This document shows positions 3,352 to 60,655 of a stretch of DNA of 64,000 nucleotides, one piece after another. Made by a program: the position numbers and the translations under genes. The notes beneath the pieces were generated by a model that saw only the letters and a list, made by a program, of their open reading frames with translations, searched no databases and was not told the origin of the DNA. Within the stretch, counting starts at the first letter, position 1. The number at the start of each line of letters is the position of its first letter. Source of the stretch: Mustelus asterias. Lineage: Eukaryota. The DNA lies in the NCBI RefSeq assembly GCF_964213995.1, contig NC_135803.1:66650001-66714000 (forward strand), read 5' to 3'.

Positions 3352-3720
3352 GGGTGGCATGGTGGCAGTGGTTAGCACTGCTGCCTCACAGCGCCAGGGA
3401 CCCAGGTTCAATTCCGGCTTCGGGTGGCTGTCTTTGTGGAGTTTGAACATTCTCCTCGTGCCTGCGTGGGTTTCCCGCGGGTTCTCCGCTTTCCTCCCAC
3501 AGTCCAAAGATGTGCAGGTTCGGTGAATTGGCCATGCTGAATTGCCCCAGTGCCCAAAGATGTGTAGTTCAGGTGGATTAGCTATGGTAAATGCAGAGTT
3601 CCAGGGATAGGGCAGAGAGGAGAATCTGGGTGGGATGCTCTTTCGGAGGATCGGTGCAGACTCGATGGGCTGAATGGCCTCTTTTAGCACTGTAGGGATT
3701 CTATGATTCCATAAGATTCC
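3352..3720 (+). mobile_element. HE1-type V-SINE, CR1-type tail
   Basis: tRNA head, V-domain, tail ending ctatgattcc. Confidence 0.95.
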
Positions 3721-3829
3721 ACTGACAATGGAGCTGCATCCTTACATTGGTAAGTGCTGCTCATGGAGCTGTCAGTTGCACAGGAAGAGTGCAAGGAGGA
3801 ATCTGCAGTGGTAAAGGCCTAGTTACTGC

Positions 3830-7017: not shown

Positions 7018-8152
7018 TAGCCTGAAAATAAAGCCCAAGGCTTTAATTTAATTGCCATTTCAAGTAAAAATAATTCATTTTTAAAAATTAACCATGTTTA
7101 AAATATGCAAAACAAATATTTTGTGTGTATGTGTACAAATTAACAGAATGTGACCTGTATTATTCAGCAGATAACCTATATGCAATAGTGGACTGATAGT
7201 TCACAGATTTGTTTTGTTCATCACCCATGTTAAATGCCAGCTGTGACTGCATTAAAAATTAATTGGAAATATGAAATACCAGCACAAAATAAAAGCCATC
7301 TGTCAGGCAACTGAAGCAAGCAGGGGACCATCTCGATGTGATATCAATGTGGAAAAGCTCCGTGAAGAGAGAGAGTAACATTCGCCTGAGATGTTACCAC
7401 CCACAAAGGCAGACCGATGCCATCTGACAGTTTGATTCCTATTCACCGTGTGTTCTTGGAAGGGTGACACAGTGCCATCAGAAACAGAAAGGTGGGGGGG
7501 GGGGGGATGGGGTAGGGAGGGAGAGGGAAGTAAAATCGGAACTCTTTTCAAGTTCAAACTCCTCTTGCTGTCTTTTTAATGCAGTAATAATGGTCTAAAC
7601 AATACCACCTGTTCCAGTCTTGAGAGCAAGACCTTTGAGGGCTTTGAGAGGGTGAAAGGCTGGATTCTTTCCTTAAACTGGAGCAGCAATTTCTGTAGGT
7701 CATCTGCAGGAAGATTCTCAATTACATCTTAGAGGCAGAAATACATCATTCAAATATTGCGTTTTATTGGAAAATATAATGCTTCATAAATTTCATTGCA
7801 AAACTTCTATAACTGCAAATCAAATAAAACTAAAGACATTTAGACAAAAAAGAGGTTCTCTTTAACTTACTGCTGAGCAAGTTCCTCATAAGGAAAATCT
7901 GAACTGCTTACGTTAGTTAATATAATGTTCAGGTTTGATTGGAGAGCTTTTAAAAAGTGGCATAATGAAGATGATCAATGCAATTTCCTGAGAAAATTCT
8001 CATCTCTCGTTACTGACTTCATTTATAGTCATGAGTTGAAAGCCTGGAACTCTCCTCGAGATGTGGAGATGCCGGCGTTGGACTGGGGTGAACACGGTAA
8101 GAAGTCCCACAACACCAGGTTAAAGTCTAACAGGTTTATTTGGTAGCAAATA

Positions 8153-8189
8153 CCATAAGCTTTCGGAGCACTGCTCCTTCGTCAGATGG
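8153..8189 (-). ncRNA. Minimal type-I hammerhead ribozyme motif (mirror copy)
   Basis: Exact reverse complement of 8236-8272. Confidence 0.75.
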
Positions 8190-8235
8190 AGTGGAAATGT
8201 GCTCTGTTTGCACTGTTTGAGAGCACATTTCCACT

Positions 8236-8272
8236 CCATCTGACGAAGGAGCAGTGCTCCGAAAGCTTATGG
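8236..8272 (+). ncRNA. Minimal type-I hammerhead ribozyme motif
   Basis: ccat-CUGACGA-a-ggagc(agu)gcucc-GAAA-gc-UU-augg: stem I ccat/atgg, stem II ggagc/gctcc, palindromic AAGCUU stem III. Confidence 0.78.
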
Positions 8273-8468
8273 TATTTGCTACCAAATAAACCTGTTGGAC
8301 TTTAACCTGGTGTTGTGACTCTCCTCGAGGCCAGCTTCAGCAAGCAGACTGCAGAGTTAAAGGTGGTGATGTGCCACCTCCTTCTCAGGGGCAACAGACA
8401 ACAGGCAATAAATACTAGCCTTACAACTGACACCTCTGTCTCCGGAACGAATAGTTCATAAACACAAT

Positions 8469-26046: not shown

Positions 26047-26174
26047 ACTCACCTGATGAAGGAACAGCACTCCGAAAGCTCGTGATACCAAATAAACCTG
26101 TTGGACTTTAACCTGGTGTTGTGAGGCTTCTTACTGTGCCCACCTCAGTCCTACGCCAGCATCTCCACATCGTG
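26047..26174 (+). mobile_element. 128-bp PLE terminus with HHR and 12-bp TSD
   Basis: Direct repeat cctatatttcta at 26035-26046 and 26175-26186; ccaaataaacctgttggactttaacctggtgttgtg shared with 8061 and 59695. Confidence 0.9.
26049..26085 (+). ncRNA. Minimal type-I hammerhead ribozyme motif
   Basis: tcac-CUGAUGA-a-gga...ucc-GAAA-gc-UC-guga; stem I tcac/gtga; inner stem II mutated. Confidence 0.7.
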
Positions 26175-30683: not shown

Positions 30684-30782
30684 TGATGTGGAAATGCCAG
30701 CGTTGGACTGGGGTAAACACAGTAAGGAGTCTAACAACACCAGGTTAAAGTCCAACAGGTTTATTTGGTAGCAAACGCCACT
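30684..30782 (-). mobile_element. 99-bp PLE terminus with 10-bp TSD
   Basis: Direct repeat agctgattta at 30674-30683 and 30783-30792; same terminus as 8061-8150. Confidence 0.9.
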
Positions 30783-31769
30783 AGCTGATTTACACAGAGG
30801 TTCAGCTAAACTTGAAGTGCAAATGCACTTTTTTGTATTCCTGCAAAGGAATGAAGGTATAAACCATCAACACAGGAAGTCTGTTAATGACATAATTTGC
30901 TGATAATTACCAATTGCAGTCTTCCCATCAGTTTAAAGTAAAAAATGCCACATTGATCTCAGAAAACAGGCAACCAGCAAGCAGATAAAGTACTCTCATC
31001 ATGTAGAAGGATGAATGCAATTAAACTGAATTAATTGACTTAATGGAATGTTTTGTGGCTTTTTTCTAAATGGTATTTTAATATTAACAAGTAGATTTGA
31101 ATTAGCAGACCCCCTTCTCCTGTCAATGTCAACTGTAGCTTAGTTGGCAGCATTCTCACCTCTAAGTCAGAAGGTTGTGGGTTGCAGGACTTGAGCATAA
31201 AATCTGCATTCCACTTGGACCCCTCCCTCTGGTCTTTTATCCTCTCTACATCTTTTCATTGGAACTGCTGGCCTGACATTAGCCATCCCAATTTTTCTAC
31301 ACGGCTCATTTACGCTAACCTACCTTCCCTTGAATATTCTCCCTAGCAAGGGAGAATCAATGATCAGGAAGGTTGATTTCCCAGGTTGAGATCAAGGCTC
31401 AGATCAAGCCCAAGACAAGGTGCAATGTCTTTCCTTGTCAGCTTGGATTTTGCATGTCTCTTTTGTGGTTGATCATGAATTGGATTCAATTTGAATTGAT
31501 TTTTGGAGCAAGCAAGGAGATGGATTCAGGTCTGCCTGCTCCTCTCTGTGCACTGGCTTTGTAACTTTAAGAAAGGAGTAAAAGATTTTTTAAAATAATG
31601 TTGCTAAACCCACTGACAATGGTAGCACAGTTGTTGTTTGGCAAGTTGGTCTCTATCTTGGGGAGATTGAACGTCAACCTCCAATATCTCCTCCTAGCTC
31701 CATAATTTCTCAGGCTGCCAATGTGGGGATTCCCAGACTGGAGACTCCCAATCTCCAACCTCATAGTAT

Positions 31770-49094: not shown

Positions 49095-49470
49095 AACAAA
49101 ATACCACCGATGCTGGAATCTGAAACAAGATCAGAGGACGCTGGAAAAACTCAACAGGTCTGCCAGCATCTATTAGGAGAGAAACAGTTAACATTTCGAG
49201 TCTTTTGACTCTTCATCAGGACTGAAGGGAGATAAACTGCAACAAAAACAAGGGAAAAAAGACACTCGCTGGGGTTTTCTGCCTGCCAAATATTTAGTCA
49301 ATAAAAGCATAATGTTGCAGATGCTGGAAATCTGAAATAAAAAGAGCAAATGCTGGAAAATCGCAGCAGGTCTCGTGGCATTTGTGGAGAGAGAAACAGA
49401 GTTAATGTTTTGCATCCAATGACTTTTCTTCCAAAAAAAGAGGTCATTGAACTCAAAACATTAACAATGT
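49095..49470. mobile_element. Two PLE-type terminal units (second family); HHR motif on - at 49185-49224
   Basis: Minus: cagtc-CUGAUGA-a-gagtc(aaaa)gactc-GAAA-ug-UU-aactg; second unit 49305-49470 is partly palindromic. Confidence 0.7.
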
Positions 49471-58699: not shown

Positions 58700-59694
58700 T
58701 CAGTACCACTTACCCGCCTGATCCCCATAACCCTTAATTCCCTTACCGATCAGGAATCCATCCATCCGCGCTTTAAACATATTCAGCGAGGTAGCCTCCA
58801 CCACCTCAGTGGGCAGAGAATTCCAGAGATTCACCACCCTCTGGGAGAAGAAGTTCCTCCTCAACTCTGTCTTAAACCGACCCCCCTTTATTTTGAGGCT
58901 GTGTCCTCTAGTTTTAACTTCCTTACTAAGTGGAAAGAATCTCTCCGCCTCCACCCTATCCAGCCCCCGCATTATCTTATAAGTCTCCATAAGATCCCCC
59001 CTCATCCTTCTAAACTCCAACGAGTACAAACCCAATCTCCTCAGCCTCTCCTCATAATCCAAACCCCTCATCTCCGGTATCAACCTGGTGAACCTTCTCT
59101 GCACTCCCTCCAATGCCAATATATCCTTCCTCATATAAGGGGACCAATACTGCACACAGTATTCCAGCTGCGGCCTCACCAATGCCCTGTACAGGTGCAT
59201 CAAGACATCCCTGCTTTTATATTCTATCCCCTTCGCAATATAGGCCAACATCCCATTTGCCTTCTTGATCACCTGTTGTACCTGCAGACTGGGCTTTTGC
59301 GTCTCATGCACAAGGACCCCCAGGTCCCTTTGCACGGTAGCATGTTTTAATTTGTTTCCATTGAGATAGTAATCCCATTTGTTATTATTTCCTCCAAAGT
59401 GTATAACCTCGCATTTATCAACGTTATACTCCATTTGCCATATCCTCGCCCACTCACTCAGCCTGTCCAAATCTCTCTGCAGATCTTCTCCGTCCTCCAC
59501 ACGATTCACTTTTCCACTTATCTTTGTGTCGTCTGCAAACTTCGTTACCCTACACTCCGTCCCCTCCTCCAGATCATCTATATAAATGGTAAATAGTTGC
59601 GGCCCGAGTACCGATCCCTGCGGCACGCCACTAGTTACCTTCCTCCAACCGGAAAAACACCCATTTATTCCGACTCTTTGCTTCCTGTCGGATA
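58700..59694 (-). CDS. CR1 ORF2 reverse transcriptase, C-terminal part
   Basis: SGVPQGSVLGPQLF, KFADDTK, RPQLEYCVQYWSP, FFSQRVVNLWNSLP. Confidence 0.95.
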
Positions 59695-59758
59695 ACACAG
59701 TAAGAAGTTTAACAACACCAGGTTAAAGTCCAACAGGTTTATTTGGTAGCAAAAGCCA

Positions 59759-59795
59759 CACAAGCTTTCGAGGCTCTGAGCCCCTTCTTCAGGTG
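59759..59795 (-). ncRNA. Minimal type-I hammerhead ribozyme motif
   Basis: cac-CUGAAGA-a-ggggcu(cag)agccuc-GAAA-gc-UU-gug. Confidence 0.78.
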
Positions 59796-60077
59796 AGTGG
59801 GAATTCTGTTCACAAACAGAACTTATAAGACACAGACTCAATTTACATGAATAATGGTTGGAATGCGAATACTTACAACTAATCCAGTCTTTAAGAAACA
59901 AAACAATGGGAGTGGAGAGAGCATCAAGACAGGCTAAAAAGATGTGTATTGTCTCCAGACAAGACAGCCAGTGAAACTCTGCAGGTCCACGCAACTGTGG
60001 GAGTTACAAATAGTGTGACATAAATTCTGATTCTAGGATCGCATGATAAAGACTCAGGAGGAAAAAAGCAGAAATAT

Positions 60078-60462
60078 TTATGTGAAATAGTGTGACATAA
60101 ACCCAATATCCCGGTTGAGGCCGTCCTTGTGTGTGCGGAACCTGGCTATCAGTTTCTGCTCCGCGACTCTGCGCTGTCGTGTGTCGCGAAGGCCGCCTTG
60201 GAGAACGCTTACCCGAATATCAGAGGCCGAATGCCCGTGACCGCTGAAGTGCTCCCCAACAGGAAGAGAACAGTCTTGCCTGGTGATTGTCGAGCGGTGT
60301 TCATTCATCCGTTGTCGCAGCGTCTGCATAGTTTCCCCAATGTACCATGCCTCGGGACATCCTTTCTTGCAGCGTATCAGGTAGACAACGTTGGCCGAGT
60401 TGCAAGAGTATGTACCGTGTACCTGGTGGATGGTGTTCTCACGTGAGATGATGGCATCTGTG
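60078..60462 (-). CDS. PLE GIY-YIG endonuclease domain (probably Neptune-type)
   Basis: SCNSANVVYLIRCKKGCPEAWYIGETMQTLRQRMNEHR...VGEHF...AEQKLI...GLNRDIG; no internal stops; the first ~9 codons of the listed ORF come from flanking CR1. Confidence 0.93.
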
Positions 60463-60655
60463 TCCTGTCGGATAGCCAGTCCCCAATCCACTTTAACACA
60501 CTACCCCCAACTCCGTGTGCCCTAATCTTCTTCAGTAGCCTTTTATGGGGCACCTTATCAAACGCCTTTTGGAAATCCAAAAACACCGCATCCACCGGTT
60601 CTCCTCCATCAACCGCCCTAGTCACATCTTCATAAAAATCCAACATGTTCGTCAT
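60463..60655 (-). CDS. CR1 ORF2 RT, part upstream of the PLE insertion
   Basis: TNMLDFYEDVT...VDAVFLDFQKAFDKVPHKRLL...WIGDWLSDR. Confidence 0.93.

Follow-up and report, generated by a model that had tools for sequence, protein, structure and literature searches.

Complex insertions of endonuclease-bearing (EN+) Penelope-like elements (PLEs) are described, in the passages of PMC3846280 and PMC8557442 that deal with their structure, as having a tail of 30-40 bp and target-site duplications (TSDs) of 8-10 bp. The one-sided tail is described there and also in parts of PMC11167929. For the minimal hammerhead ribozymes of PLEs, sections of PMC4209133 report that their self-cleavage is weak and requires a dimer, that evidence for cleavage in vivo is lacking, and that dual motifs on opposite strands lie about 100-700 bp apart and are ascribed to truncated PLEs; these sections name no cartilaginous fish among the hosts. 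In a lizard, according to the passages of PMC11167929 on its biochemistry, the PLE protein, a predicted dimer, cuts and extends both target strands, two adjacent reverse transcriptase (RT) start sites bound the tail, and the hammerhead is not needed for insertion. Architecture, tail and opposite-strand hammerhead pairs of the kind analysed here are already published. The literature covered, from which most subscription journals were absent, yielded no account of a comparable shark PLE, of PLE twin priming or of 5' ends that coincide with the hammerhead cut. The end statistics reported below bear on how inverted ends and tails arise in PLEs and on whether minimal hammerheads cleave in vivo.

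The window, by which we mean the whole 64,000-nucleotide stretch of Mustelus asterias DNA analysed here, carries a short palindromic insertion of PLE sequence at 8049-8329. Element positions are numbered from +1, which is window 8205 on the minus strand, counting outward, so that position p is window 8206-p; on this scale the predicted ribozyme cut lies at +49|+50 and the ORF ATG of coding copies at +147-149. The features of the locus are as follows.

8061-8317, 257 bases: short inverted PLE unit, between the 12-bp TSD copies
8044-8047, plus strand: left half of the target motif, CTGG, outside the TSD
8049-8060, plus strand: left TSD copy, 12 bp, a direct repeat found as one copy at the empty site of organism B
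8061-8205, minus strand: long arm, PLE pLTR +1 to +145, by identity with the pLTR of coding copies
8061-8096, minus strand: equivalent of the "tail", element +110 to +145, flanked by the two outer ends most often found in the family
8153-8189, minus strand: minimal type I hammerhead, core from 8185, predicted cut between 8157 and 8156
8203-8205, plus strand: central-junction microhomology TCT, 3 nt, by comparison with natural copies L007, L015 and L002
8206-8219, plus strand: spacer, 14 nt of upstream sequence from the element itself (-13 to 0), in the same sense as the short arm
8220-8317, plus strand: short arm, PLE pLTR +1 to +98, by identity with the coding-copy pLTR
8236-8272, plus strand: minimal type I hammerhead, core from 8240, predicted cut between 8268 and 8269
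8318-8329, plus strand: right TSD copy, 12 bp, a perfect direct repeat, also by comparison with the empty site of organism B
8331-8334, plus strand: right half of the target motif, CCAG, read from the sequence

The original prediction of 98-nt arms matching at 97/98 positions around a 14-nt spacer, with a hammerhead on each strand and a 12-bp TSD, was confirmed in every part from the sequence. The complementary arms, 8108-8205 and 8220-8317, are 98 nt each and 99% complementary, with 14 nt between them, and the sole mismatch, T8128 against G8297, is indeed a G-U pair on the plus strand, as had been claimed. The predicted fold of 8061-8317 has an energy of -201.9 kcal/mol (z -28), which none of 200 shuffles equalled. 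The unit is nevertheless asymmetric, as 8061-8107 represents 47 extra element bases on the left side only, 8097-8107 being, like the tail equivalent 8061-8096, without a partner in the right arm. The long arm stops 2 nt short of the position of the ORF ATG in coding copies, the window copy is without an ORF, and the spacer consists of upstream element sequence and not of filler. The long open frames of the window are repeat-derived or unassigned and revealed no host gene, and a bacterial promoter scan, whose model is irrelevant to this genome, found nothing.

Both hammerheads have the core CUGACGA...GAAA, starting at 8240 on the plus and 8185 on the minus strand, a 4-bp helix I, a 5-bp helix II, an extra A after A9 and no helix III; core boxes, helices I and II and the palindromic 15-16 region of a minimal type I hammerhead are thus all present. 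Among 180 motifs, helix I pairs 1-4 are kept in 173, 173, 176 and 166, and a compensatory change from U-A to C-G occurs in 17. A search of Rfam returned no hammerhead family at E<=1 in the locus, and the Rfam miRNA hairpin models that it did return were rejected as generic hairpin matches below their gathering scores. It had been proposed that a transcript from either strand would have to choose between the long hairpin and the hammerhead fold. Such a choice is not supported: in the whole element the hammerhead is predicted to cost 67.9 kcal/mol on either strand, compared with some 4 kcal/mol for one arm by itself, and the head-to-head layout means that on either strand the complementary arm is transcribed first and the ribozyme arm second. 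From this layout, a read-through transcript would offer no kinetic window for the hammerhead either. In the parent element the ribozyme likely serves to cut tandem transcripts, as a dimer or with the help of a protein; one study has reportedly addressed dimer cleavage of PLE hammerheads. Elsewhere in the window, at 49219 and upstream on the minus strand, there is a hammerhead-like motif with a perfect 5-bp helix II and unrelated flanks, possibly part of a different PLE family.

The 24-nt hammerhead core has 27,065 exact matches in the 3.68-Gb genome. Copies that run past +146 enter the ORF, whose start pattern has 195 matches, and five long copies that were fetched revealed a unit of about 3 kb; all five are broken, none having an intact ORF. 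RVT_1 or GIY-YIG was matched in 6 of 12 frames of the long copies, RVT_1 above the cut-off in L144 and L142 and GIY-YIG above it in L144 and just below it in L143, and in L143-L146 the pLTR flanks the ORF on both sides, at its start and at its 3' end. The arms of the locus show identity with this pLTR, in support of the PLE pseudo-LTR origin proposed for them, and we assign the locus on this basis to the non-coding pLTR end of an RT + GIY-YIG Penelope-like family. The long copies also have a CX4CxxC linker and the CCHH residues of the EN; Neptune/Nematis elements are defined in the relevant part of PMC8557442 by a CX2-5CxxC linker between RT and EN and by CCHH in the EN, a definition that the parent fits by these motifs. 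At the 5' ends of three of the five long copies (L142, L143 and L145) a piece of the pLTR recurs in inverted orientation, with its end at +109 to +116, which is the layout of the short insertion in the window.

Several other copies deserve a description. Three older pLTR relatives, 81-88% identical, are found in the window at 26050-26170, 30686-30786 and 59694-59819. Two of them bear different hammerhead variants, and the one at 59694-59819 adjoins a GIY-YIG-like open frame (60081-60500, minus strand), making it a longer truncated copy. L142 contains a 380-bp insertion of another repeat between its RT and endonuclease regions (3365-3744). Short head-to-tail repeats of the pLTR and ORF start occur at L121:1728-2087, L042:1381-1823 and L048:1268-1946; L121 and L042 have two units, both of which include the hammerhead, and so come near to what is in practice called a non-LTR retrozyme, and in L048 there are five 155-bp units without hammerhead.

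The insertion could be dated by its empty site. In contigs of the related organism B (X3 record 9 and X7 record 16, from two studies), 8048 runs straight into 8318 with one copy of the repeat, the X3 flanks showing 10 differences in about 650 aligned letters. X1 and X2, from organism A, carry the left junction with zero differences but could represent the source sample, and runs X8, X9 and X10 gave no coverage of the unique flanks. The empty site shows that the TSD is genuine and that the insertion postdates the split between organisms A and B; since organism B holds this site with a single TSD copy, the proposal of one recent insertion event is upheld.

A DNA search for the unit, in which 40 of 2177 candidates were scored, returned full-length palindromes throughout the genome, and each of 28 distinct palindrome loci that were examined had its own flanks. 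For a census we took the first 100 of the 27,065 core matches, which cover the first 10.3 Mb of C1, dropping 8 duplicate loci and leaving out one nested fragment pair in L055. This yielded 38 inverted pairs, whose lengths ran from 164 to 1465 bp and did not exceed 340 bp in 24 cases, and the inner reach of longer inverted copies was -1249 to -2355: short palindromes grade by length into full-length copies. The 8 pairs of short palindromes among these first 100 core matches correspond by extrapolation to roughly 2,000 genome-wide. The 40-nt junction of the window copy, in contrast, occurs once in 3.68 Gb, and junctions are distinct in 63 of 66 cases, with three junctions common to pairs of loci. 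Copies sharing spacer and junction with the window copy had been expected if a family existed, and a junction unique to the locus had been taken as the mark of a one-off. The genome-wide search found the window junction at this locus alone, and uniqueness turns out not to separate these options, as the architecture itself recurs thousands of times.

These junctions bear on whether such copies multiply as a unit, in the manner of a retrozyme-like or ambisense family whose hammerheads would cleave a palindromic RNA that then inserts again, perhaps after forming a circle. About 2,000 short palindromes (by the rough extrapolation above) whose sizes bunch at 225-340 bp would suit such propagation, retrozymes derive from PLE pLTRs according to the part of 10.64898/2026.07.22.740005 on their origin, and the commonest shared junction, a symmetric one that was seen twice, has 6 copies when counted genome-wide. 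These six copies, however, sit on microhomology, differ in their outer ends and are split 3:3 between loop-II variants, a pattern that would suit repeated use of a microhomology better than descent. With private junctions, no tandem unit, a hammerhead fold predicted to be strongly disfavoured and lengths that grade into full-length copies, we regard propagation as a unit as very improbable and, for this locus, as largely refuted. Of the two origins first proposed, a truncated inverted PLE or a retrozyme-like family, the former therefore stands, and the locus is likely one of about two thousand stumps, each built afresh on landing. At the centres of L019, L025, L028 and L030 (about 1600-1670) the junction fillers are short stuttered copies of neighbouring element sequence, which suggest repeated template slippage by RT or end-joining repair.

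The outer ends follow a strict rule. A TSD was called for 58 of 70 inverted pairs (12 had no TSD call), and in all 58 TSD-bounded pairs one outer end is long (+141-154) and the other short (+57-118, mostly +105-113); within the unbiased census alone the rule holds in 31/31. Outer ends cluster at about +109 and +146 and most solo copies end at +109-113, the short end of the window copy (+98) being off the main cluster. Such a rule, which the locus obeys, bears on a two-stage origin in which a solo pLTR would have landed first and been made palindromic later, by a replication template switch or by a second insertion. Solo copies are common, and PLEs can insert next to each other, as noted in a passage of PMC6765202. 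A single perfect TSD nevertheless brackets both arms, the empty site is without either arm, and each arm contains sequence absent from the other; together with the long/short rule in 58/58, these observations make a later local rearrangement highly improbable.

We also compared the two arms of each locus. Minority letters of one arm were found again in the partner arm in 68 of 127 cases, against a mean of 19 (maximum 34) in 1000 shuffles. This sharing did not arise by later homogenisation, because private changes are one-armed in 45 of 48 cases, and the sequences indicate that both arms of a locus come from one source. Their inner ends correlate as well (Spearman 0.78, n=38), the long arm reaching further inward in 17 of 38 pairs and the short arm in 10, with 11 ties.

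One source for both arms raises the possibility of fold-back, in which a single cDNA or antisense template primes itself and is copied back, the second arm being trimmed near +109 by the endonuclease or by a template jump. Shared subfamily variants, correlated inner ends and the 11 of 38 pairs with near-equal inner ends would all follow; passages of PMC3846280 prefer self-priming for head-to-head palindromic junctions, and the part of PMC8557442 on tails ascribes them to EN-mediated resolution. A copied long cDNA cannot, however, produce a short arm that reaches further inward, as it does in 10/38 pairs and here. At this locus the spacer lies on the short arm's side and is joined over TCT, which means that neither arm is a plain copy of the other. 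Moreover, the end at +109-113 acts as a priming site of its own, as most solo copies end there.

The target sequence provides a further argument against fold-back. The window locus reads CTGG-N-TSD-N-CCAG. Among the 58 TSD-bounded insertions, CTG is found to the left of the TSD in 40 (20/290 control flanks), CAG to the right in 35 (26/290 control flanks) and both in 24 (2/290 controls), and the TSD measures 12-14 bp in 44. The insertion target is two-fold symmetric, CTG..CAG. We observed in addition that L055, L074 and L093, and likewise L008 and L077, represent the same target in other dispersed repeats hit independently, with different insert lengths, in line with a sequence-preferring endonuclease. 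Fold-back is on balance unlikely, and it is possible mainly if centres flip after insertion.

We thus consider, with a probability of roughly 0.7, that the locus is an inverted insertion of the hammerhead end of an EN+ PLE, recent, non-coding and 5'-truncated, which likely arose in a single step: reverse transcription started from both strands of a staggered target cut, and the resulting short cDNAs were united head to head. A dimeric element protein would cut both target strands 12-14 bp apart; of the two 3' ends, one would start synthesis at about +146 and its counterpart at about +109 (+98 at this locus), with a single RNA probably serving both as template. Both cDNAs would stop early, at +1 and -13, after which their ends would anneal over 3 nt and host repair would fill in. 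The symmetric target, the long/short end rule, the private junctions, the shared subfamily variants, the length continuum and the biochemistry of the lizard PLE (PMC11167929) all speak for twin priming, which we infer from end products. On the other side, the long arm reaches further more often than the short one (17 vs 10 of 38), ties with tiny loops suit fold-back, census lengths are bunched, with 24/38 not above 340 bp, three junctions are each common to a pair of loci, and the start sites of the lizard element fall within the ORF instead of ahead of it. Flipping of the centre between the inverted arms after insertion could erase polarity.

Traces of ribozyme cutting were looked for in the 5' ends of sister copies. 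In a set of core-less arms (2,162 matches), the first matching base was +50 in 594, +51 in 384, a count inflated by TGG microhomology with the antisense arm, and +52 in 111. The first 100 listed of each class were corrected by hand: 48 of the +50 class possibly belong to another subfamily that starts further up, and 22 of the +51 class were intact cores with a one-base loss. After this correction about 310 (+50) and 300 (+51) remained, compared with about 107 (+52), which amounts to an approximately 3-fold excess of starts at the predicted ribozyme cut in sister copies. In 30 fetched loci, whose inverted neighbours were read by eye from the upstream sequence, 14 of 21 truncations between +44 and +53, classed by eye, fall at +50/+51 (binomial p 4.5e-6 vs uniform), and all five solo copies with a TSD start there. 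This peak is suggestive of ribozyme cutting, with an RT pause as the alternative. Starts at the cut concern a small minority of copies, to which the window copy does not belong: its inner ends were rejected as cut marks, lying 49 and 63 nt upstream of the cut. In two other palindromes (G000:C3:125728077-125728131 and C3:130628271-130628323) both arms begin directly after the predicted cut.

With somewhat less than even odds, we tentatively suggest that the stumps record both activities, namely a dimeric protein priming both strands of a symmetric target from two start sites on one RNA, and hammerhead cutting in the germ line. Dual-strand priming at two start sites would explain the inverted copy and the one-sided tail; germ-line cutting is proposed because no fewer than 600 arms start at one of the two bases that directly follow the predicted cut. 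Taken by itself, the locus is ordinary, a young and probably dead insertion. It likely cannot move on, because it has no ORF and no daughter and its read-through transcript is predicted to form a 98-bp hairpin with the ribozyme off. Its value is that, within a large series, it is the cleanest example and has an empty site. Where they are transcribed, the near-perfect short hairpins, roughly two thousand in number, may in addition give rise to double-stranded RNA.

When compared with known systems, the locus differs from ambisense viroid-like RNAs, which as described have ribozymes in both polarities, each able to fold in its own strand of a replicating circle; folding on both strands is here opposed by the predicted 67.9 kcal/mol penalty. 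With animal non-LTR retrozymes, as presented in parts of PMC7229834 and 10.64898/2026.07.22.740005, it shares a small, non-coding, PLE-related sequence, a type I hammerhead and a long TSD. Those elements, in contrast, are head-to-tail tandem units with same-strand hammerheads and a circular RNA; here there is a single head-to-head pair with one hammerhead per strand, and the unit does not propagate with its junction, which is private (1 occurrence in 3.68 Gb, 63/66 distinct). The ribozymes agree with the minimal hammerheads of PMC4209133, as far as its structural sections describe them, in the 4-bp helix I, the unpaired base after A9, G10.1-C11.1, the palindromic 15-16 region and the absence of helix III, and differ from them in the 5-bp helix II and in position 17, which is U here (among 180 motifs, U in 105 and A in 58). 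Poseidon of Anolis (PAc), in the corresponding passages of PMC11167929, has in common with this family two adjacent RT start sites bounding the tail and the cutting and extension of both strands. Its start sites lie, however, 111-118 nt into the ORF, compared with ends just before the ATG here; its target is AT-rich; the linker found here is of Neptune/Nematis type; and for PAc no reads at the hammerhead cut are reported in these passages, whereas genomic 5' ends peak there in the present family. The complex insertions of EN+ PLEs differ in that our arms are reduced to the pLTR only, with a very high copy number, a TSD of 12-14 instead of 8-10 bp and the symmetric CTG..CAG target, of which the passages in PMC3846280 and PMC8557442 make no mention. 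With these insertions, as those same passages portray them, the locus nevertheless shares the head-to-head inverted pLTR, the palindromic junction, the one-sided tail, the TSD and the heavy 5' truncation.
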